64,000 nucleotides of DNA from Candidatus Kapaibacterium sp. (GTDB lineage Bacteria > Bacteroidota > Ignavibacteria > Kapaibacteriales > UBA2268). Made by a program: the position numbers and the translations under genes. The first letter of the stretch is position 1; each line of letters begins with the position of its first letter. Below are positions 304 through 60,221 of the stretch, piece by piece. Location: NCBI GenBank assembly GCA_963665665.1, contig OY762428.1:4832001-4896000 (forward strand), in the 5' to 3' direction. A model generated the notes under the pieces. The model was not told the origin of the DNA and did not search any database. It was given only the letters and a program-made list of their open reading frames with translations.

Positions 304-2352
304 ATGAAACCATTAAAAATTGCCTTCTTATGGCATACTCATCAACCGGACTATAAATCAGGTAATGAATTTCTCCTTCCCTGGGTACGTTTTCACGGAA
401 TAAAAGATTATTACGATATTCCTGCCATTCTCAATGAATTTCCAAAAATAAAACAGACTTTCAATATCGTTCCTTCTTTATTTAAACAAATCGATGAATA
501 TATTGAATGTACAACTCTTGATCAGGTTCAAAAATTAACATATATTTCTGCTGAAAACCTGACAGAACAGGAAAAATATAAAATAATTGACAGCTTTTTT
601 ACCTGCAATCTTGATAATATGATAAAACCATATCCAAGATATCTTGAATTATATGAAAAATCAAAAAACAAAGATGAAGCTATAAAATCATTATCTCCTC
701 AGGATTGGACAGATATCCAGACATGGTATAATTTAACATGGTTTGGCCCAATATCCAGAAAAGAGCCAATGGTTAGAAGATTGATACAAAAAGGGAAGAA
801 TTTCTCTGAGTCAGAAAAATTGATAGCATTAAAAAAAGGGAAAGAAGTCCTAAAGCGTATAGTATCCAATTTTGAAGAATTGATAACCTTAGGGCAGGTT
901 GAGCTAAGTGTTTCTCCGATGTATCATCCGATACTACCTTTGCTTATAGATTCTGATATTGCCCGAGAATCACTCCCGGGCAGAAAATTGCCACAACCAA
1001 GATTTAACTACCCGGAAGATGCTGAAATTCAAGTTAAAAATGCGTTAGGCTTCTATGACGAAATGTTTTCCGAATTTCCTGACGGAATGTGGCCTTCCGA
1101 AGGTTCTGTCTCAGACGAAACATTAAAATTGCTGTCTTCCTGTGGAATAAAATGGGCTGCAACAGATGAAGCTATATTATCAAAATCTGTCGGGCCGTCA
1201 TTCAAACCAACTGAAAAATTTTTCCCGAGGTGCTTCAACACAGGTTCAAATGAAATAACTTTGCTTTTCAGAGATCATTTTCTGTCGGACAGAATAGGTT
1301 TTACATATTCGTCGTGGAATTCTGAAGATGCAGCTAATGATTTTATCTATCACTTAAATAAAATTCGAGAAGAAATAATAAAGATTCACGGTGAGGATTC
1401 CCTGGACCATGCTGTTGTGCCAGTGATTCTTGATGGCGAAAACTGCTGGGAGTTTTATCCTGAGAATGGCCTGCCCTTCCTCAGGAATTTGTATTCTAAG
1501 TTAATTAATAATGAAAGATTGACTACAGTTACATGTTTTGAGGCATGTTCGGACAGTCATGATAAATATTTGCCAACATTGGATCATATTTTTCCGGGTT
1601 CCTGGATTGATTCCAATTTCAGTATCTGGATTGGGCAGGAAGAAGACAGGCTCGCGTGGGAAATGCTCGGCAGGGCAAGAAAAGAAGTTGAAAACAGGAG
1701 AGACAACATAAGTTCTGAAAAAATCAACAGAACTATGGAAGAAATATATATTGCCGAGGGCAGCGATTGGTTCTGGTGGTACGGGGACGAACATCAGGCT
1801 CCGAATAAAGATGATTTTGATATTATGTTCAGAAATCATATTAAAAATATTTATGAATTAATAAACCTTCCTGTTCCTGATGATGTCCTTAAACCAATCG
1901 GAAGGAAAATAACTACTGAGACACGGAAACAAAATGAACCGAAACAAATTGAGATTAACGGAAGATTAATTCCTGAAGACAAATGGGACAAGGCAGGTTA
2001 TTTCTCAGCTTCAGGTGAACAATCTTCAATGCACAGGAGCGGTGAAATATTCAGGGGGCTTTATTACTATTTTATTAATAATAAGTTGTTCATAAGGCCC
2101 GAGATAAAAAATCAGTTATCGGAAGATGATGTTTTAAGGATAATTTTCCGAAGCGGAGAGTTCTTTGAATTGAAGGCGTCAGGAATATCTTATTCTGATA
2201 GCCTGGATTCCGTTATCTTTGCCAATTCTGAAGTAACCGAAATTGGAATATTCTTCACTGAAAGAATTGAAAATATTTCCATTGCCATAGAAACAGTATC
2301 GGTTAATAATAAATACAGATACCCTGCATCAGGTATGGCAGAATTAAAGTAA
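304..2352 (+). CDS. Glycoside hydrolase family 57 (amylopullulanase-like)
   Basis: GH57 motifs WHTHQP, HPILPL, WPSEG (nucleophile), ILDGENCWE (acid/base), AEGSDWFWW. Confidence 0.92.
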   Translation: MKPLKIAFLWHTHQPDYKSGNEFLLPWVRFHGIKDYYDIPAILNEFPKIKQTFNIVPSLFKQIDEYIECTTLDQVQKLTYISAENLTEQEKYKIIDSFFTCNLDNMIKPYPRYLELYEKSKNKDEAIKSLSPQDWTDIQTWYNLTWFGPISRKEPMVRRLIQKGKNFSESEKLIALKKGKEVLKRIVSNFEELITLGQVELSVSPMYHPILPLLIDSDIARESLPGRKLPQPRFNYPEDAEIQVKNALGFYDEMFSEFPDGMWPSEGSVSDETLKLLSSCGIKWAATDEAILSKSVGPSFKPTEKFFPRCFNTGSNEITLLFRDHFLSDRIGFTYSSWNSEDAANDFIYHLNKIREEIIKIHGEDSLDHAVVPVILDGENCWEFYPENGLPFLRNLYSKLINNERLTTVTCFEACSDSHDKYLPTLDHIFPGSWIDSNFSIWIGQEEDRLAWEMLGRARKEVENRRDNISSEKINRTMEEIYIAEGSDWFWWYGDEHQAPNKDDFDIMFRNHIKNIYELINLPVPDDVLKPIGRKITTETRKQNEPKQIEINGRLIPEDKWDKAGYFSASGEQSSMHRSGEIFRGLYYYFINNKLFIRPEIKNQLSEDDVLRIIFRSGEFFELKASGISYSDSLDSVIFANSEVTEIGIFFTERIENISIAIETVSVNNKYRYPASGMAELK

Positions 2353-2368
2353 ACTGCCATACCTGATG
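2327..2368. terminator. Hairpin between convergent genes, overlapping the GH57 stop codon
   Basis: 15-bp perfect inverted repeat CATCAGGTATGGCAG ... CTGCCATACCTGATG. Confidence 0.6.
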
Positions 2369-2378
2369 TACAAAAACA

Positions 2379-4652
2379 TTAGTGCAAAACTGTAAATCGG
2401 GTTGTATACATTCCGGAATCTGTATCAATTTTCACAAAATAAACTCCCGTTGGCAATTTTGATATGTTTACAGATATTTCATTACCCGTATTTGTAATCT
2501 GAGACTTTTTTAGAACAATATCACCCAATGAATTCGAAATAATAATTTTAGCGGAACTTCCATCAGCACCTGAAATAGAGAAATTAACAACATCATACGC
2601 AGGATTCGGATATGAAGTAATATTAGAAATCTCGTTTGTCTCATCAACAACAGAATTTATTCCGGCAGTGTTTTCCATCCCTGGTGTAGGGCTCATAAAA
2701 TCAAAGGAGCCAACCCCATTTGGATACCTGCCAAAGCTAATATCGGTTTCCTGGCTTTCCCAAGATATATAGTCTATAACTGCCATCTCGTTATTACTAA
2801 GAGTCAGAGATTCTCCTGATCCGGATAATTTAAAGTTTGCATGCAATTCACCCTGCTTACCATCTTCATCAGCCCATATAACGAGGTATTCATCCGGATT
2901 GATAGTTACAGCCGGCAAATCCCATTTATCAGGATTATCTTCACTGTCGGTAAGATACCATCCTTCAAGCGAAACGGGATCACTGCCTGTATTATAAAGT
3001 TCAATCCAGTCGTCAAATTCATCTTCTTCATCGGAAATAGTATTATCATTTTTAGCGAGCAACTCATTTATTACTATACCGGATTCGGCCATAAATTCTG
3101 TTTCAATTGTGTAATATTCATAAGCTGCCCTGGCAGGTGAAAATATGCCGGCTTCATTGTTTTCGGCGTAAATGTAGTATTGAATATCAGCAGTGCCGGA
3201 AATTATTTCTCCGCCAAAGATACCATCGTTTGCATCTCCGTCATCATGCTGCCCGTCGTCATACAATTCTGAAATTGAATATTTTTGGTGTTCATTGTTC
3301 CGATGGGCAATAAAAGCATAATCAGCATTTTCAATTTTAACTGATATACTCACAGACTCATTCTGTGAAGGTTTTTCGGGTGAGTATTCAATGTTGTTGA
3401 TGATTGGCTGTTCCGCTTTAAATTCACCAACTCCGCTCAAAAAATCAACCCGATAATCCATTAATTGTTTTATTCCTATCATTGACTGCGGCCCCATACC
3501 GACCTGGTCGGTGATATTGCTTTCAAAAGAAGCAATGTTATAGAATTTATTATTATCCTGGATTAGATCAGCTTTAATAATATCCTGAAAATAATAAGCC
3601 CTTTCGAGATATTTGTCGTTTTCAAAGTATTCTTCGATCATTGTTCTCATGTGTGCAACATACATTCTTTTATATCTGGGAATTTCTAACACTTTTTTCA
3701 CGATCGGGTAGTTATTGTTCGATTCATTTAAAAATGGATTCAGCTGCTGCAGGCCACTGGTATTGAGCGGTGGCCCATCCAATAAATTTGCAAAGCAACC
3801 AAAAGATTCATTGAAATCCCAGGGGATAATCTGGAATTGCCCGTTTCCTGATTGATAAAGATAAAAATTATGTGCGAAATTTATCGGTGCATCCAGGTTT
3901 ACTGTCAGATTATCGAATGCTATTTTCCATAAGTGCCGGTCGACATTATAGCTATTCTCCATATTATCCGGATCATTGTTAAAAGTATCTAGGAAATCTA
4001 TCAATTCTTTCCAGCCATAATCAGAACGAAGTTCGTAGTAGGAAGTATAATCCGAGGAATCTTCCTCAAAATATCCCATAGAAGAAACTACCTGCTGAGA
4101 ATTCCCAACTAACTCGCCCTTGAAAGCAGGATTATCCCTGCTGCCGAAATGTGAGTCGTAAAAATATTTATCTACTGATTGAACTGATGTATAAACTCCG
4201 ATATAATCGTCATTTATATATACTTTTGCATAATTTGCCATTGGGGCAGGAAAATAGTTTCTTGCAATCTCATAGGCAAGAATCTCTCGCACAATTGTGG
4301 GATCCTTATATCCGTTTGATAGCTTCAACGTCCCAAAGCCGTCAAGTTCCTGGTCATCAATTATATGATCAAGCTTAATATTCAGAGGGTTTTTCTTATT
4401 CTGAGGCCTGTAACTGCTATTTCCCTTATACCTGACCCCAACACTGTCAAATTGTTCTCCATCAACATAGCAAGTAGCTATTAAGCGTTCTTCATCACCT
4501 GCCGAATAGAGATTATCCAATAGATCATCCCAGTTTTCCTGTTCAAAGTAAAGTTTTATTTCTGTTATTTTGCTAACCGAATAAAAGTCGTCTGCCTTGC
4601 TGTTCATCAATGGAATTAGCACTATTCCCATAAGGATAATCAATTTTTTCAT
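2379..4652 (-). CDS. Secreted CotH-family kinase with lamin-tail domain and T9SS C-terminal sorting domain
   Basis: Signal peptide; CotH motifs VGVRYKGNSS, HNFYLY, IPWDFNESFG; LYDDGQHDDGDANDGIFG Ca-type motif; VINELLA..DWIELYN lamin-tail domain; YPNPA...LPTGVYFV CTD. Confidence 0.88.
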   Translation of the reverse strand: MKKLIILMGIVLIPLMNSKADDFYSVSKITEIKLYFEQENWDDLLDNLYSAGDEERLIATCYVDGEQFDSVGVRYKGNSSYRPQNKKNPLNIKLDHIIDDQELDGFGTLKLSNGYKDPTIVREILAYEIARNYFPAPMANYAKVYINDDYIGVYTSVQSVDKYFYDSHFGSRDNPAFKGELVGNSQQVVSSMGYFEEDSSDYTSYYELRSDYGWKELIDFLDTFNNDPDNMENSYNVDRHLWKIAFDNLTVNLDAPINFAHNFYLYQSGNGQFQIIPWDFNESFGCFANLLDGPPLNTSGLQQLNPFLNESNNNYPIVKKVLEIPRYKRMYVAHMRTMIEEYFENDKYLERAYYFQDIIKADLIQDNNKFYNIASFESNITDQVGMGPQSMIGIKQLMDYRVDFLSGVGEFKAEQPIINNIEYSPEKPSQNESVSISVKIENADYAFIAHRNNEHQKYSISELYDDGQHDDGDANDGIFGGEIISGTADIQYYIYAENNEAGIFSPARAAYEYYTIETEFMAESGIVINELLAKNDNTISDEEDEFDDWIELYNTGSDPVSLEGWYLTDSEDNPDKWDLPAVTINPDEYLVIWADEDGKQGELHANFKLSGSGESLTLSNNEMAVIDYISWESQETDISFGRYPNGVGSFDFMSPTPGMENTAGINSVVDETNEISNITSYPNPAYDVVNFSISGADGSSAKIIISNSLGDIVLKKSQITNTGNEISVNISKLPTGVYFVKIDTDSGMYTTRFTVLH

Positions 4653-36241: not shown

Positions 36242-36664
36242 TCAGCTATCAAGAATATCGTTGTAATCAACAGTTATATTCATTTTGGTAGTAACAAAAT
36301 CTCTTATTTTTTTTGCAAAAACCATGGCATCTTCAACAATTCCATTAGAAAGAAAAATGGTCTCATTCGGATATCTTATTTCTACAGCATAACCCTGCAA
36401 TTCCGTAACAATATCAAAATAGCGGCCGAAATCCGGATCTGTCTCAGTTATTAAATCAAGTAAATAGGCCAAATCATGAGAATATCTAAAATCAGTATTT
36501 CTATAAATCAGGAAAGCCTTAAAATATTTCTCAATTGCCTGTTGGCAATGAAAGGTTACAGTATCAAGATATTCGGGTATATTAAGATAAGTTATTTTGG
36601 CAGTACCCAGATCATGGTCACCTTTTCTGATCCATTGCTTTATATCGTTAATTGGATCGTTCAT
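36242..36664 (-). CDS. HEPN domain protein (COG2250-type) of an MNT-HEPN pair
   Basis: W..K.D.DL, FHCQQAIEKYFKAFL, HDL, RYP; overlaps the upstream MNT gene. Confidence 0.88.
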   Translation of the reverse strand: MNDPINDIKQWIRKGDHDLGTAKITYLNIPEYLDTVTFHCQQAIEKYFKAFLIYRNTDFRYSHDLAYLLDLITETDPDFGRYFDIVTELQGYAVEIRYPNETIFLSNGIVEDAMVFAKKIRDFVTTKMNITVDYNDILDS

Positions 36665-36968
36665 ACAAAGTTTTTCCATAATTTAAAACTTGATATACAA
36701 AACCATGTTTGTCATCTTTCGATTTCTCTATTTCACTTGGAGTATAAACTATTATATCAATCGGAATTCCGGTTCCCAGTAATATTTTTCTAACAAAAAA
36801 GGTTCTCTGCGGCCTTGGCAAGTCGCTGTCTTTTATAACAAACAAGTCTAAATCACTATTCTCATCCTGATTTCCAATAGCATAAGAACCGAAAAGTATG
36901 ATTTTTTCGGGATTGTAACCTGCTACAATCTTTTTAATAACTTCCGATATTTTATCTGCATCAATCAT
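36648..36968 (-). CDS. Minimal nucleotidyltransferase (MNT); probable start MIDADKI at 36968
   Basis: PEKIILFGSYAIG..SDLDL, IDIIVYTP motifs; the longer ORF-track N-terminus overlaps the upstream gene and its terminator. Confidence 0.88.
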   Translation of the reverse strand: MIDADKISEVIKKIVAGYNPEKIILFGSYAIGNQDENSDLDLFVIKDSDLPRPQRTFFVRKILLGTGIPIDIIVYTPSEIEKSKDDKHGFVYQVLNYGKTLYERSN

Positions 36969-37033
36969 AATTGCCAACAATATACAATTTTTTTTTAAAG
37001 AATCAATAGAAAGCTGGCAGGGCAAATTGCTAT

Positions 37034-37073
37034 AAAAAAAATTCATCCGATGACTGCCTGCCACCGGATGAAT
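37034..37073 (-). terminator. Intrinsic terminator ending the ECF operon 40374-37084
   Basis: ATTCATCCG...CGGATGAAT stem with adjacent A-tract (T-tract on minus strand) just after the stop at 37084. Confidence 0.65.
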
Positions 37074-37083
37074 CATTCTGAAA

Positions 37084-38049
37084 TCAGTCTTTTTCAAATT
37101 TATAAATGCTGCATGGATTTTTTCCGCTGGCCCATATGGTTTCCTGATCCAGAATAAATATCTGGTCAATTCTGTTATCGAAAAGATGGCCGCTATCCTG
37201 CCAGGTTTCACCACCATCAATTGATACGATAAATCCGCCTCCGTCATTTCTTGACCCGCAGGCTCCGTAAGCAACTTTATCATTAACAAATTCAATATCA
37301 CTTATACCGAATGCTGTATTCGATTCCAGTTCAATCCATGATTTCCCGCCGTCAGTGCTTTTTAGCAATGTTCCCCAGTTACCGCCAATAAGAATAGTAC
37401 CATTGGGGGCAACACAAATATCCTGAAGGTAGGAGTTTACCGTTTCCATTATTTCCCAGGTCTCCCCACCGTCGTTAGTTTTCATTATGTAGCCTATCTG
37501 CCAGCTTTTACCATCAGTATAAACAAATGTTCCTACTGTCATTATACCGTTGTCCGCATCAAAGAAGTGCATTGTAGATACCCAGTCTGCAACGGGAAGC
37601 TTAAACTTTTCCCAGTTGGCGCCGCCGTCTGTAGTCCTGAATACGTGCCCGTGCCTGGTAGCCACCCAGCCGGTATTTTCATCAACAAAGAATAAATTAC
37701 TAAGGTAAGTTTTTGTAATATCCAGGCTGATGTCCTGCCATGTTTTACCCCCGTCCTCGGTTTTCATTATTGTGCCATACTCGCCGCATACATACCCCTT
37801 GGTTTCACTGACAAACTGCATCCCCCACAATTCCTGCTTTGTACCTGTATAAATATACTCCCAGCTTTTGCCGCCGTCGGTTGTTTCCGCCATGTATCCG
37901 TCGGGAGCAATCATAAGCCCTTCCAGTTCATTGAAGAAAATAAAATCGCGGGAGAAATATGCTCTTTCTGTAAATATTTTATTCCACTCAGCCTGCAAGG
38001 TGTTCATACCTGCAATTACGAGAATTATTAAAATTATTATCTTTTTCAT
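37084..38049 (-). CDS. Secreted YCF48-like/BNR-repeat beta-propeller
   Basis: Signal peptide; six TxDGGxxW-type BNR/Asp-box repeats. Confidence 0.88.
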   Translation of the reverse strand: MKKIIILIILVIAGMNTLQAEWNKIFTERAYFSRDFIFFNELEGLMIAPDGYMAETTDGGKSWEYIYTGTKQELWGMQFVSETKGYVCGEYGTIMKTEDGGKTWQDISLDITKTYLSNLFFVDENTGWVATRHGHVFRTTDGGANWEKFKLPVADWVSTMHFFDADNGIMTVGTFVYTDGKSWQIGYIMKTNDGGETWEIMETVNSYLQDICVAPNGTILIGGNWGTLLKSTDGGKSWIELESNTAFGISDIEFVNDKVAYGACGSRNDGGGFIVSIDGGETWQDSGHLFDNRIDQIFILDQETIWASGKNPCSIYKFEKD

Positions 38050-38063
38050 TTTACTACCAAAAA

Positions 38064-39821
38064 TTATTGTTTAACAAATCTGATCACAGCTACTTCGCCC
38101 ATGTTTGTTTTCACCGAAGCAAGGTAGATACCCGGCTGCAGGCCGCTAAGATTAATATTTATTGTATATTCACCCGGACTGAGCAATTGTTCGTTCCGAA
38201 TTTCCCGGACAAAATCTCCGTTTGTTCTGTAAAGATTAATACTAACCTTTGCCGAATTATTTATCCTGAATTTCATTGATGTGGAATTCAGCGCCGGATT
38301 AGGAAAAATATTCTGTATGCTTACCGGGCCGGAAGATATCCTGCAAATATCATAGAAAGATTCGTCTTCGTTGAATCCCTTGCAGGCTTCTTCTTCAGGC
38401 ATTGCTCCTGAACGTATCTGCCTGAGTATTTCGGCTTCCTTTCTTAATTTTTTGGCATAACGATCCGGTAGTGCGTTTAAAAATTCATCCGTTGGATAGT
38501 ACCAGAGTACAACCCTTTCGGCGTAGTAGTCATCATGATTATCGAAATATTCATTCAAATTTATCTCTACCGGAACCATATCTTTGTAATAAGGATCGCT
38601 ATTTGTCAGGAAAAGCGGATGCCTCGGGTTATGGATGAAGAACAAGGGCGTTTTAAATACGCGATTAAGAATATTATCTCTTTTGTCTTTATAAGTACAT
38701 GTATAAAGAAGCGGCGAGATTCCGGAATACCCGTCAATACCTTGGCCGTCATAATTTTGCAGGTTGATATCCAATCCTATAGCAGATTTTATTTGTCCAA
38801 GGCGGTTCATTTCTTCGTTTGCGAGTTGTGCTTTTCTTCTCTTTTCTTCCGGCCAGCGGCTGTCATAACCATGATAGTCCAGGTCTTTCATCTTACGGCT
38901 TATTTCTTCTTTTTTATCTCTTATTTTCCAGTCTTTTATTTCGACGGCTATATGTTCTTTCACACAGAAGAGGCTTCCGTCCAAAGGATATTCGGCTTTT
39001 ACATATTTCTGAACCTCTTCACTATTGCGGTATTCATCCAGTCTTTTATAATCAATCGGGTGAATTCGGTCAGTTCTTTCAGTTATAAATTCAACTGTAT
39101 TGCCTGTTAACTTTACTCCGATCTTTTCAAGTTCTTCCCTGTTAAGATTCAGGACAACTATTCCGCCTATACTGTGCCCTGTTCTTTTATCGTTGGCCGA
39201 AGGGTGCAGAAGTATGCTGGTGTTATCTTTCCCTCCGCTTCCAATAGCAAATGATGTAGTGGTATTACTGCTACCGTTATTTTCCACTGATCTGAGTTTT
39301 CGGACAATTCTGCCTTTGTATTTTAAAACTCCGTTATTTTCTTCAATACTCTTTCCCTCGTTTGGATATTCATAATATTCAATTATCCTTCTCTGCTTAA
39401 TATCCTCTTTCTTTTCAGATTTGTCCTTTCCTTTTTCTTTTGGTGATTCATCTGAATTAATATTATCTGATATAATATTATTTTCTAATAATTTAACTGT
39501 ATTCACATCAGAATTGCTTTTATCGCTTTTCTCAGTCGTTTTCGTGATTATATTTGAATTTGCTGTGCCCAGGGCAGTTGTTGTTACAACGTTTTCATCC
39601 GCCTGGTTTGTGAATATCAGCATTAACGCGCTGACTAAAATACCTGCTCCCGTGAGTGGCATGATTAACCTCCTGAAAATCTTTGGTTTAACATTTGATA
39701 AATTCGTTTGTACAGATTTTTTATCAATAATGCTCCGGAGCATATCTTCGCTTAAAAGTTCTTCCCGGTTGCGCAATTGGCCGAGATCTTCCAAACTTTT
39801 ATTTAAATCGATTTTTTTCAT
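38064..39821 (-). CDS. Putative single-pass anti-sigma factor carrying a C-terminal T9SS sorting domain
   Basis: Directly downstream of an ECF sigma; about 50-aa hydrophilic N-terminus, KIFRR then hydrophobic helix, T/S/N/K/E-rich linker, globular core, IFPNPA...LQPGIYLASV..RFVKQ CTD. Confidence 0.7.
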   Translation of the reverse strand: MKKIDLNKSLEDLGQLRNREELLSEDMLRSIIDKKSVQTNLSNVKPKIFRRLIMPLTGAGILVSALMLIFTNQADENVVTTTALGTANSNIITKTTEKSDKSNSDVNTVKLLENNIISDNINSDESPKEKGKDKSEKKEDIKQRRIIEYYEYPNEGKSIEENNGVLKYKGRIVRKLRSVENNGSSNTTTSFAIGSGGKDNTSILLHPSANDKRTGHSIGGIVVLNLNREELEKIGVKLTGNTVEFITERTDRIHPIDYKRLDEYRNSEEVQKYVKAEYPLDGSLFCVKEHIAVEIKDWKIRDKKEEISRKMKDLDYHGYDSRWPEEKRRKAQLANEEMNRLGQIKSAIGLDINLQNYDGQGIDGYSGISPLLYTCTYKDKRDNILNRVFKTPLFFIHNPRHPLFLTNSDPYYKDMVPVEINLNEYFDNHDDYYAERVVLWYYPTDEFLNALPDRYAKKLRKEAEILRQIRSGAMPEEEACKGFNEDESFYDICRISSGPVSIQNIFPNPALNSTSMKFRINNSAKVSINLYRTNGDFVREIRNEQLLSPGEYTININLSGLQPGIYLASVKTNMGEVAVIRFVKQ

Positions 39822-39834
39822 TATTCAACCCGAG

Positions 39835-40374
39835 TTATATTTTCATTGAAACGGTTTTAATATCCCGAATGCTGTTTTCTGATACCTCGATACCAAGTTC
39901 TTTCCTTACAAGCTTCTTTGCTCTGAACAGGCGCAGCTTTACGTTAGATAGCGAAGTATTCATAATATTTGCAATTTCCTTTTGGCTAAAGCCCTGAATA
40001 TAGAACAATATCAGTGTTTCCCTGTATTTAGAATCCAAATGGTTTATTGCCTCCATCATCAGGTTTATATCGCACCTGATTTCCGGGCTGACTTCCTGCA
40101 TTTTCAGATTGTCCAAAACGCTTTGGTCAGTGGCATCAAACCTTGCAAGCCTGCTCCTGTTCTTGTTGTAAAGCCGGTAGGCTATAGTAAACAGATAGCT
40201 GAGGAAAGCCTGTTTGTTCTTCAGTCTGTCAAATCCCTCGAAAGCTGCCAGCACGGTTGAAGCTGTAAGGTCTTTCGCCTTATCGCGGCTACCTGTAATT
40301 ACAATGGCGAACCTTTCCAGCCTCTCCTTCAGCGGCATGTAGAGTTCAAGGAATTCATCATTCTTGTTTTTCAA
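39835..40374 (-). CDS. ECF sigma-70 family RNA polymerase sigma factor
   Basis: Region 2 (AKDL...AFLSYLFTIAYR) and region 4 (QGFSQKEIANIMNTSLSNVKLRLFRAK); 179 aa. Confidence 0.93.
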   Translation of the reverse strand: MKNKNDEFLELYMPLKERLERFAIVITGSRDKAKDLTASTVLAAFEGFDRLKNKQAFLSYLFTIAYRLYNKNRSRLARFDATDQSVLDNLKMQEVSPEIRCDINLMMEAINHLDSKYRETLILFYIQGFSQKEIANIMNTSLSNVKLRLFRAKKLVRKELGIEVSENSIRDIKTVSMKI

Positions 40375-40883
40375 ATCAATAATTAACCGGTTAATAAAAC
40401 AAATTCGCGCTTTAATTTCACAGTATGTTCCGCAAAATCCAAAAAGGTTACAAGAATTGCAAAATTATTTTTTTGGCCCCGGTGTTTGGCAATGATACTT
40501 AAGGAACAATATACATGTAATAATAATAATATCTAATATCTTGTAAAAAAATTGTATCTGAATCACAGCCACAGGAAGCAGGATGATTAACAACAATCAC
40601 GGGAATAAAGCCGGAGTAAGCTATCGGAAAGGATTCCAAAGCCGGCAGCGGGTTAATTACCCTCATCCGACAGAAATCCTGTGCTAAATGATCATTGAGT
40701 TTGCCGGGCATAGTAAACTTCAATGTTTGTATATCCTATATTCACCCGGAAAAAACAAATACCGGCTCTTCCGTACCAAAACATCAATTGAAAATAGGGA
40801 TCGACCGTTCTAATAGAACGAATTTCTATATCAAAAAAGTGAAACTCTGTGTTTTCTGAGTAGAATTTTACCTGAAAAAGTGT

Positions 40884-41114
40884 CTCGGAAGGCACGAGGG
40901 AACGCTCGGAAAGCATGGGGGAACGCTCGGAAAGCATGAGGGAATGCTCGGAAAGGACGAGGGAATGCTCGGAAGGCTCAGGGGAATACTCGGAAAGGAC
41001 GAGGGAACGCTCGGAAAGGACGGGGGAACGCTCGGAAAGGACGAGGGAATGCTCGGAAAGGACGGGGGAACGCTCGGAAAGGACGGGGGAACGCTCGGAA
41101 GGCTCAGGGGAATA
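40884..41114. repeat. Intergenic tandem array of 11 x 21-bp units, consensus CTCGGAA-RG(C/G)(A/T)YRR-GGGAAYR
   Basis: Eleven contiguous 21-nt units read directly; CTCGGAA and GGGAA invariant; units 5 and 11 identical. Confidence 0.95.
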
Positions 41115-58506: not shown

Positions 58507-59070
58507 ATGAACAGAGAACTGCAACATATCGATGAAAAAAACCTGGTAAGTCTTTTAATTGAAGAAAAAGGCAAATCCGACCGGGCATTTAACGAGATAT
58601 ATGAAAGATATAAAGCAGACGTATATAAATATTGCACTTACATGACTGATAACATCGACGAGGCAAACGATGTATTCCAGGAAACATTTATCAGGTTCTA
58701 TAATAATATTGACCTAAAAAAACTTGGCAAATCTGTTATTTCCTACCTGATAATAATTGCGAGGAGTATCTGCCTTAATCTGATTAGAAACAGAAAATCC
58801 ACTGTTGAGTTCTCCGAGACAACATTTTCTGTTGACGAAAGAAACCAATACGACAATAACGAGCTTTTCGAATTAATAATTCGATCCCTGGACCTGCTAA
58901 AACCTGAAAACCGTGAAGCTTTTATACTTAAAGAATTGCAGGGATTCAAATACAGGGAGATTGCAGATATCCTTGATATTAGCGAGTCTTCTGCCAAAAC
59001 AAAAGTAGCAAGGGCAAAAGTAAAAATAACGAAAATTCTTCAACCTTACATTAGTGAATTGAAACAATGA
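58507..59070 (+). CDS. ECF sigma-70 family RNA polymerase sigma factor
   Basis: AFNEIYERY, ANDVFQETFIRFY, REAFILKELQGFKYREIADIL..AKTKVARAK. Confidence 0.93.
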   Translation: MNRELQHIDEKNLVSLLIEEKGKSDRAFNEIYERYKADVYKYCTYMTDNIDEANDVFQETFIRFYNNIDLKKLGKSVISYLIIIARSICLNLIRNRKSTVEFSETTFSVDERNQYDNNELFELIIRSLDLLKPENREAFILKELQGFKYREIADILDISESSAKTKVARAKVKITKILQPYISELKQ

Positions 59071-60221
59071 ACGATTATGAAAAAATATATGATTACTTAG
59101 AAAGCTCCCTCGAACCTGAGGAAGAACAGCAGCTTTTTGCACGGATAAGCGCTGATTCCGAATTAAGAGATTTCTTTGGTAATACCATAAGAATCAATAC
59201 TTCCCTTAAGGAAAACGATCGTGAGATTCTTCCGCCGGATTCACTAAAAGGAACTATATTTTCCTCTCTCGGCCTTTCTGGAGACAACCCTGAAATGAAA
59301 GAAGCTCCCGTTAAATCCAAATTGTCGAAACGTTATTTACTCTGGCTGCTGCCGCTCCTATTAGCATCTATTTTTATCTATGATCATTATGAATCCAAAC
59401 TATCCGGCCTTGAGGGCCAGGTGCAAGCTTTGAATCAGAAGATTGAAGAAGGGATTAAACTGGCTGACAATACTCCCATGCAGGATAAGCAGACTGTAAA
59501 TAGTCAGGTTGCCATAAAGAAATCAATTCCACAAACAGATAACAAAGAAAAATATAATGCAGTGATAAACAAAAATGATTCATTCAATTCAATAAGAAGC
59601 GAGGGTTGTTTTATTAACCCGTCATCGGCAAAATTTTCATCAAAAATAATGAAGGTTAGTACCCCCGCTACTGATTTTCAAAATTATTATCAATCATATC
59701 CAATGATATCCAATTTATTGGCTCTCTCGGGACCTGATTCAACCGGGCCGTTTTCACTTGAGATAGGCGGAATTTTTGCCGGCGGAATTCAGAATTACAA
59801 TTTTGCCGCTAATGATTTCGGCCCACTGCATGACAATTTGATCGGTATTAATTACTCAATGGATGAGAATTGGAACTTTGGGCTCATATTCCGCAGAGAA
59901 GAATTCCTGCAGGAATTCACCGGACATGAAGCTGACAGTAATTTCAGATACAAGCAGGAGCAAACACTTACCAGCCTGGACTTTAGGGTATTGTATAAAA
60001 CCGCAGTCCTGCCTTATAGCGATTTTTACCTTGCAGGTTCCGGCGGAATAAACACTTCGGGTTTTGTATTCAGGGGTAGTTTCGGCCTAGACATTAAGGC
60101 TATGAACAATATTACATTCAGGTTAGGATATAATTATTCTCGCCTGTTCTTTAAATACCAGGGAAACAGTTTTCAGTCCGATAAATCAGGACTACAATAT
60201 AGTATATTATACAGATTCTAA
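59067..60221 (+). CDS. Putative dual-membrane-spanning anti-sigma factor (N-terminal ASD-like region, TM, linker, C-terminal beta-barrel)
   Basis: ATGA overlap with the sigma gene; DYLESSLEPEEEQQLF N-terminus; KSKLSKR then hydrophobic helix; low-complexity linker; amphipathic strands ending YSILYRF. Confidence 0.72.
   Translation: MNDYEKIYDYLESSLEPEEEQQLFARISADSELRDFFGNTIRINTSLKENDREILPPDSLKGTIFSSLGLSGDNPEMKEAPVKSKLSKRYLLWLLPLLLASIFIYDHYESKLSGLEGQVQALNQKIEEGIKLADNTPMQDKQTVNSQVAIKKSIPQTDNKEKYNAVINKNDSFNSIRSEGCFINPSSAKFSSKIMKVSTPATDFQNYYQSYPMISNLLALSGPDSTGPFSLEIGGIFAGGIQNYNFAANDFGPLHDNLIGINYSMDENWNFGLIFRREEFLQEFTGHEADSNFRYKQEQTLTSLDFRVLYKTAVLPYSDFYLAGSGGINTSGFVFRGSFGLDIKAMNNITFRLGYNYSRLFFKYQGNSFQSDKSGLQYSILYRF

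Follow-up and report, generated by a model that had tools for sequence, protein, structure and literature searches.

In the FecA/FecR/FecI system, and in the trios of SusC-like protein, anti-sigma factor and extracytoplasmic function (ECF) sigma factor of Bacteroidota, trans-envelope signals from the outer membrane reach the ECF sigma factor via a single-pass anti-sigma factor. The RsgI/SigI systems of cellulolytic clostridia comprise several paralogous pairs per genome, with different extracellular sensors on a single-pass anti-sigma factor, and FlgM is a small soluble anti-sigma factor without membrane anchor or sensor domain that leaves the cell in one piece via the flagellar type III apparatus. 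The present analysis concerns a minus-strand operon of Candidatus Kapaibacterium sp. (Bacteroidota; assembly GCA_963665665.1) located in a stretch of 64,000 nucleotides of contig OY762428.1 (positions 4,832,001 to 4,896,000; hereafter the window). In this operon an ECF sigma gene is followed by the gene for a 585-aa protein, which is very probably the membrane-anchored partner (putative anti-sigma factor) of the sigma factor and whose C-terminus carries a predicted type IX secretion system (T9SS) sorting domain, or tag. FecA/FecR/FecI signalling differs in employing two proteins, an outer-membrane transducer and FecR, where a single polypeptide would span the distance here. RsgI differs in its Gram-positive, outer membrane-free hosts, in its lack of a secretion tag and in the family of its N-terminal domain.

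The nearest comparison is offered by the Dma proteins of Bacteroidota. According to the describing paper, Dma1 spans both membranes by fractionation and combines an N-terminal sigma binder, a membrane helix and a long disordered tether, and the Dma proteins are encoded beside ECF21 sigma genes and defined by a C-terminal eight-stranded outer-membrane barrel, OMP_b-brl_2 (PMC10927553). The term 'T9SS' has no occurrence in that paper, nor has 'secretion' in the Dma preprint. The locus in the window resembles this arrangement in that the gene for the 585-aa protein directly follows an ECF sigma gene and encodes a predicted N-terminal binder, one helix and a long disordered tether. Helix and tether correspond to those of Dma1; the putative binder was assigned by gene adjacency and a complex model. 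The far end is different, as no OMP_b-brl match was obtained in the 585-aa protein at E<=1 and an alpha/beta domain of about 290 aa plus a T9SS type A tag are found instead. Since the barrel is missing, the 585-aa protein is by definition not a Dma member; having a tag where Dma proteins have their barrel, it would rely on the T9SS, and not on the assembly of a barrel, to reach the outer membrane. By analogy, it very likely works on the same plan as Dma. The original prediction had called an inner-membrane anchor joined to an outer-membrane export tag paradoxical and had known of no characterised example; this judgement was too strict, since Dma proteins, with their binder, helix and tether reaching the outer membrane, provide a precedent for an inner-membrane-anchored anti-sigma factor of such reach. 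We consider it reasonably probable that the locus encodes a Dma-type ECF sigma/anti-sigma pair, with the sensor end brought to the outer-membrane T9SS by its tag and with cleavage and sigma release following a signal received there.

A link between a tagged protein and an ECF sigma factor has been described in Porphyromonas gingivalis, where PorA, a protein with a T9SS C-terminal domain (CTD), signals to the ECF sigma factor SigP via PorXY and controls T9SS genes (PMC7712824). PorA and the 585-aa protein have in common that an ECF sigma factor receives, or would receive, information from the cell surface through a T9SS-CTD protein. PorA, however, is a separate soluble or surface protein that works via the sensor kinase PorY and the regulator PorX; it carries no fused anti-sigma module and is not encoded beside the sigma gene. 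Literature searches found no paper describing an anti-sigma factor with a T9SS tag, and the main text of the ECF reclassification paper (PMC7826278) contains no mention of T9SS or Por_Secre and no detail on ECF21 neighbourhoods.

Architecture of the 585-aa protein

The locus had originally been described as a compact operon of an ECF sigma gene, the gene for the 585-aa protein and a BNR propeller gene, with gaps of about 14 bp and a closing terminator. The open reading frames (ORFs) of the window were found at the predicted coordinates and in that order, with intergenic gaps of 13 nt (sigma gene to 585-aa gene) and 14 nt (585-aa gene to BNR gene), and a terminator-like hairpin starts 10 nt past the BNR stop codon, its stem being followed by a T-run (Table 1). 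The sigma factor matched TIGR02937 with 61.4 bits (cut-off 42.9), Sigma70_r2 with 24.6 bits (cut-off 24) and Sigma70_r4_2 with 56.9 bits (cut-off 25.7). The presence of regions 2 and 4 only, with TIGR02937 above its cut-off, places it among the ECF sigma factors (sigma-70 group 4). Its best named NCBIfam model is NF058625 (GFO_1088/PG0214 type), which scored 69 bits, under the cut-off of 130, and its TTG start is consistent with an alignment of 13 orthologs.

An AlphaFold2 model of the 585-aa protein, based on 111 aligned homologs, reached a mean pLDDT of 76.1 and, together with hydropathy, bore out the architecture read from the window alone: a hydrophilic N-terminus, a basic KIFRR patch, one transmembrane helix, a disordered linker and a core. 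The aligned homologs were picked by eye from the 150 best cluster representatives of the family (see below) as full-length sequences with a helix, the other 39 being excluded. Among all 150, the first apolar segment lies at residues 35-80 in the 111, earlier in seven and later in three, and 29 have none; these helix-less representatives are 145-697 aa long and many are fragments. Within the 111 members, the helix starts at a median residue of about 52-53, its apolar span has a median of 20 residues (interquartile range, IQR, 19-22), and the net charge amounts to +3.1 before and -0.8 after the helix, being higher before than after it in 110 members. The N-terminus of the family follows the consensus MKxxLxxxFxxAKxLxxxxxLxxxEELxxLL. 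Residues 1-50 of the 585-aa protein contain neither Cys nor His, so that an HxxxCxxC motif is absent, and no Pfam or NCBIfam profile of the class I or ZAS type (zf-HC2, RskA) or of FecR matches residues 1-504 at E<=1. With its approximately 35 residues the module comes nearer in size to the short class II anti-sigma type (CnrY).

The start codon of the 585-aa gene matters for the nature of the apolar segment. An internal Met (MPLTGAG...) had been named as a possible true start, with which the helix would become an ordinary cleaved signal peptide. This Met is not the true start, since the N-terminal 50 or so residues with their motif are conserved across the family, and the upstream start is, judged by this conservation, the real one. 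Typical T9SS cargo begins with an N-terminal cleavable Sec signal peptide; here, the apolar segment begins at residue 52 after a conserved hydrophilic module. The segment would thus represent a membrane anchor rather than a signal peptide, with the N-terminus inside.

Clamping between regions 2 and 4 is the usual way in which anti-sigma factors hold ECF sigma factors. A model of the complex between the sigma factor and residues 1-76 of the 585-aa protein scored 0.64, compared with 0.37 for the best of three controls. In the calibration of this score, 58 of 80 solved complexes attained the mark, as did 2 of 110 mismatched pairs; these counts hold only roughly, as own alignments were used. At least 65% of contacts recur between the complex runs, and the pLDDT of the partner is at least 56. 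In the model, residues 4-33 contact the sigma factor at residues 5-45 (region 2) and at residues 88-107, 121-126 and 153-162 (region 4). Sigma binding by the N-terminus, which had been part of the original prediction, is supported by this model for residues 4-33.

Alternatively, the 585-aa protein could be a usual T9SS cargo whose extended signal peptide is cleaved off, co-transcribed with the sigma factor and perhaps regulated by it, without being an anti-sigma factor. Extended signal peptides occur in autotransporters. The internal Met lies at the start of the apolar stretch, and two of the seven representatives with an early helix are gene calls at equivalent internal Met codons in the host genome's own paralogs (P0062 and P0080). 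No anti-sigma profile is matched, and the apolar spans of the family overlap in length with signal peptides, so that cleavage of the 585-aa protein by signal peptidase is possible. This explanation is nevertheless regarded as very unlikely, given that the 50 pre-helix residues are conserved in both sequence and length across the family, that the N-terminus is modelled between sigma regions 2 and 4 with a score well above that of the controls, and that the pairing with sigma genes described below is nearly invariable (5 of 5 in the host genome and 15 of 16 loci in relatives). Moreover, 247 of the 260 other tag-bearing ORFs of the host have their apolar segment within the first 30 residues, with a median span of 16 (IQR 15-18), and the operon encodes no other candidate for an anti-sigma factor.

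Between helix and folded domain, the family has a linker with a median of 143 aa (IQR 101-281; 111 members), and the tether of the 585-aa protein, about 130 residues, is proposed to have sufficient length for reaching across the periplasm. The pLDDT is mostly >90 over residues 210-585, and the core modelled alone (residues 205-505) gave a pLDDT of 86.5 and a pTM of 0.84. Conserved within the core are a module, LWYxPTxEFxxALPxRY, and the cysteines C480 and C493; these two are nearly invariant and would fit an oxidising compartment. A Foldseek search of the core against the PDB returned nothing at E<=0.001 (best E 0.11), the best VIA-align result, with a Z of 6.7, covered a 53-residue helical hairpin and is no convincing match, and the ESM Atlas yielded no usable lead for the core. 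The absence of a structural match to the modelled domain does not prove a new fold.

The sorting domain, which had been predicted with a TIGR04183 search as its check, scored 33.4 bits against this model (cut-off 23) and 34.4 bits against PF18962 (cut-off 27), and is the sole family match in the 585-aa protein. The four paralogous partners in the same genome are also above the Pfam cut-off (34.4-44.2 bits). In all 150 representatives the domain is found at the extreme C-terminus, as located by a profile built from the same family, and the nearly invariant columns of the tag region include PNP, three glycines and Y566. When the whole model was searched with Foldseek and VIA-align, the sorting domain alone was matched. 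Its modelled beta-sandwich aligned by VIA-align with PorU (6za2_B; Z 10.6, rmsd 2.0, 85 aa), with mirolase (8qb1_A; Z 10.0, 22% identity) and with T9SS-bound NucA (8glk_D; Z 9.0, 23% identity). Unrelated Ig-like folds score as high as T9SS sorting domains against the modelled tag, so that its identity rests on the sequence profiles; by these, it is a genuine T9SS type A sorting domain.

The generic fold of the tag leads to a further explanation, according to which the 585-aa protein is a conventional anti-sigma factor with a periplasmic sensor, its far end staying in the periplasm and the tag being an Ig-like docking module (e.g., onto PorV) or a relic. Alpha-2-macroglobulin, fibronectin type III domains and the RsgI4 sensor (7cg5_A, Z 9.6) align equally well with the tag, and the problem of exporting a tethered chain would be avoided. 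Against this stand the scores of all five paralogs above both curated sorting-domain cut-offs, the terminal position of the tag in 150 of 150 representatives (again with the profile from the same family), the retention of the family's nearly invariant tag columns and a tether of 100-280 residues that far exceeds the need of a periplasmic sensor. We therefore think it quite improbable.

The host is equipped to use such a tag. Its genome encodes SprA (956.6 bits, cut-off 200) and PorU (853.4 bits, cut-off 420), and a PorV-like gene adjoining PorU was matched in two pieces (164.4 and 79.5 bits, both short of the cut-off of 250). In the genome, tag matches above cut-off number at least 150, and 265 ORFs were matched by the family-derived sorting-domain profile. 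The T9SS is complete in the host genome.

Family spread and linkage to sigma genes

The complete host genome contains exactly five ORFs with the conserved module that precedes the tag, as determined by tblastn and profile searches, and each of them directly follows one of the five closest paralogous sigma genes, at gaps of -3 to 52 nt. These five proteins stand among 265 ORFs that match the sorting-domain profile, and five of the 23 sigma-like ORFs own such a partner, which means that the pairing of the pre-tag module with sigma genes exceeds chance. The sigma factor of the window is 36-46% identical to five paralogs in the genome (38-46% for the four with tagged partners and 36% for a sixth sigma factor).

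An exhaustive HMMER search with the 585-aa protein yielded 1435 cluster representatives at E<=0.001, of which 363 reach E<=1e-10 and 22 reach E<=1e-30; a word-indexed search found the query alone. Full-length likeness is seen in about a dozen representatives, and most share residues ~415-585, i.e., the conserved module and the tag. In a sample of 401 genomes of the phylum, three candidates were scored per genome, with 431 weaker matches besides; most of the scored matches involve the tag only, and those that reach past the tag come from ten other genomes, all of the same order. At 16 loci from ten related genomes, a sigma homolog with 31-42% identity lies directly upstream on the same strand in 15, and the sixteenth locus lies 950 nt from the start of its contig. 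A search based on the sigma factor added two further pairs of sigma factor and tagged partner in one related genome, the tags being recognized by eye. The original prediction had allowed for homologs that are not linked to ECF genes, and this is contradicted by both the host genome (5/5) and its relatives (15/16 loci). The sigma factor with its tagged partner is a conserved family and not an accident.

Related sigma factors are also accompanied by partners with other far ends. In two genomes of another family of the phylum (L056/G103 and L057/G107), sigma homologs of 35% identity are followed by single-pass partners of 295 aa and 458 aa. Both show the same style of N-terminus and a helix, and their C-termini are neither tag- nor barrel-like. 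In the host genome, the sixth paralogous sigma gene (L047, C1:2132000-2135200; sigma 2271-2897, minus strand) is followed by a gene for a 418-aa partner (1018-2274, minus strand) and a further gene (311-970, minus strand). The N-terminal motif of the 418-aa partner is similar, its helix lies near residue 63 and its C-terminus ends in a barrel-like way, and the 219-aa protein encoded after it has an outer-membrane-protein-like end. Neither of these two proteins has a Pfam match at E<=0.01, and a word-indexed homolog search with the 418-aa partner found the query alone; among its ESM Atlas neighbours, OMP_b-brl_2 is present in 29-50% of members. As a lead, the 418-aa partner looks like a true Dma1-type gene. 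Since the same N-terminal style occurs with other C-termini in the relatives and in this sixth paralog, the N-terminus can be viewed as a module that travels with the sigma clade as the far end varies. The predicted sigma-binding module thus seems to occur joined to far ends of several types. The features of the 418-aa partner suggest, though they do not prove, that the tagged proteins arose within a Dma-type lineage.

The window also contains a second ECF sigma gene (58507-59070, plus strand) with a gene for a 384-aa partner (59067-60221, plus strand). This protein has an N-terminal region of the 'YLESSLEPEE' type, an apolar segment near residue 89 and an outer-membrane-barrel-like end (..GLQYSILYRF), and Pfam finds nothing in it. 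About 14 of the 23 sigma-like ORFs of the genome have partners of this kind, which may form a second family of envelope-spanning anti-sigma factors.

Operon surroundings

The coordinates of the operon and its parts are collected in Table 1. The third gene encodes a BNR/Ycf48-like propeller (PF14870 82.2 bits, BNR 34.2 bits) with an N-terminus that by eye resembles a signal peptide, and without a sorting domain. A BNR-repeat gene is located downstream in two of the five paralog operons, that of the window and that of paralog 4. In the latter case, a 492-aa BNR-repeat protein is encoded about 800 nt downstream (L051:3459-4937, plus strand) and carries a sub-threshold T9SS tag (20 bits, cut-off 27). 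BNR genes are very numerous in the host genome, with 125 tblastn pieces.

Table 1. Features of the sigma operon in the 64,000-nt window.
Feature	Position	Strand	Details
Promoter-like element, candidate ECF-type -35 region	40439..40452	-	TGTAACCTTTTTGG; 78 nt upstream of sigma start
ECF sigma factor	39835..40374	-	179 aa, TTG start; TIGR02937 and Sigma70_r2/r4_2
585-aa protein (putative anti-sigma factor)	38064..39821	-	585 aa
Predicted cytoplasmic sigma-binding module, residues 1-35	39717..39821	-	Helices 6-15 and 25-33 (AlphaFold2); family motif
Single membrane helix, residues 52-72	39606..39668	-	Basic KIFRR patch before it; hydropathy, AlphaFold2 helix 47-73
Disordered tether, residues 75-208	39198..39599	-	Rich in K, S, N, E, T; pLDDT <50 (AlphaFold2)
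Folded alpha/beta domain, residues 209-504 (~290 aa)	38310..39197	-	AlphaFold2; no match among solved structures
T9SS type A C-terminal sorting domain, residues 505-585	38067..38309	-	PF18962 and TIGR04183
BNR/Ycf48-like beta-propeller	37084..38049	-	321 aa; PF14870 and BNR matches
Intrinsic terminator, operon end	37040..37074	-	15-pair stem (6 G-C pairs), loop 5, then TTTTTTATAG

The exact 14-mer TGTAACCTTTTTGG is present in two copies in the 5.46-Mb genome, 78 nt and 41 nt (par1) upstream of paralogous sigma genes, and related forms precede the other three. This placement would fit the promoters of self-regulated ECF operons. Allowing up to two mismatches, 58 copies were found genome-wide where 58.6 were expected; without such an enrichment, the promoter role is a prediction and no regulon can be read from the motif. 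A scan for sigma-70-type promoters was uninformative (10 found, 11.4 expected).

A tandem array with a period of 21 nt and 10.3 copies (window positions 40884-41100) is located 510 nt upstream of the sigma gene. Tandem Repeats Finder (TRF) detected 148 arrays of period 21 or 42 in the whole genome, approximately one per 37 kb, which belong to few unit families and often form adjacent pairs; such arrays also occur near the operons of paralogs 2 and 4, possibly by chance. Just past the terminator, two minus-strand ORFs (36242-36679 and 36648-37301) resemble by eye a HEPN-like/nucleotidyltransferase pair (..GSYAIGNQDENSDLDLFV..).

Proposed mechanism and its meaning

In the mechanism that we favour, the first ~35 residues of the 585-aa protein would keep the sigma factor bound on the cytoplasmic side of the inner membrane, in which the protein would be anchored by its one helix with the N-terminus inside, and the disordered tether would cross the periplasm. 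The sorting domain would take the sensor end to the outer-membrane T9SS (SprA/PorV/PorU) and thence to the outer membrane or the cell surface, doing the job of the outer-membrane barrel in Dma1. A surface signal or the state of the secretion machine may then trigger cleavage of the tether or the membrane helix, and the freed sigma factor would switch on its own operon, including the BNR propeller, plus other targets.

A number of points weigh against this mechanism. Binding, topology, export and cleavage of the 585-aa protein are predictions, in part from structural models, and the pass of the modelled complex may reflect a general likeness, as many sigma/anti-sigma complexes have been solved. 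Within the sample of 401 genomes (three candidates each), family matches are confined to one order. Pfam and NCBIfam searches at E<=1 detected no match in residues 1-504, neither FecR nor any other known anti-sigma profile, and the overlap of the apolar spans with signal peptides leaves room for cleavage. The relation to the Dma-like 418-aa partner is weak at the N-terminus (hhalign E 0.03, probability 1.65%), and the N-terminal profile, searched over all ORFs of the host, recovered four of the five paralogs and nothing else up to E<=50. Finally, a chain tethered in the inner membrane is not fully releasable at the surface by the T9SS unless it is threaded or cut. A chain that is held in this way must therefore stay threaded, stay docked (e.g., on PorV) or be cut.

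This topological problem keeps alive the idea of a secretion checkpoint, with which the original prediction had begun. Here, the T9SS would pull on the sorting domain, force or stall would expose a cleavage site, and the release of the sigma factor would report T9SS function and tune the genes for cargo or machine. Its logic is that of FlgM, where sigma activity depends on how a secretion machine deals with the anti-sigma factor. The architecture speaks for the checkpoint as much as for the Dma-type mechanism, and a stalled or pulled state appears plausible for tethered cargo unable to complete export. The heavy investment of the host in tagged proteins is also in line with a checkpoint, as are the BNR-repeat genes downstream of two of the five paralog operons, one with its sub-threshold tag. 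With PorA, a tagged protein is moreover seen to feed an ECF pathway that controls T9SS genes (PMC7712824). On the other hand, the five paralogs, with their differing middle parts and their conserved folded domain, look more like five sensors of different cues than like five read-outs of one machine, and the conserved 290-aa domain has no role in pure pulling. No T9SS structural genes stand beside the operons examined. On balance, a pure checkpoint is considered unlikely.

A further reading treats the T9SS as part of a signalling device: the sorting domain would make the translocon or its PorV shuttle grab the far end of the tethered anti-sigma factor, the pull or stall driven by the proton-motive GldLM motor would govern cleavage of the tether, and each of the five sigma factors would be switched by secretion activity together with what its own sensor domain meets at the surface. 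We rate this as rather doubtful; if it were true, no earlier anti-sigma factor would have been gated by the T9SS, and the 585-aa protein would be a natural example of a chain staying threaded from the cytoplasm to the cell surface.

Returning to the Dma-type reading, it was not until 2024 that anti-sigma factors spanning the envelope were recognised in Bacteroidota, and their route to the outer membrane is an open question. The tagged family would follow the same plan with a new far end, composed of a T9SS tag and a new folded domain. The system is practical to test, since its binder is short, its tag clear and its promoter (TGTAACC element) likely self-regulated, and it is of clear interest to the fields of T9SS and ECF signalling. 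Should the tag be in use, the T9SS would handle a substrate whose anchor still sits in the inner membrane, and gene regulation would be coupled directly to the secretion machine or the cell surface. T9SS-rich bacteria like this host, with its >150 tagged proteins, would then carry several such switches in parallel.

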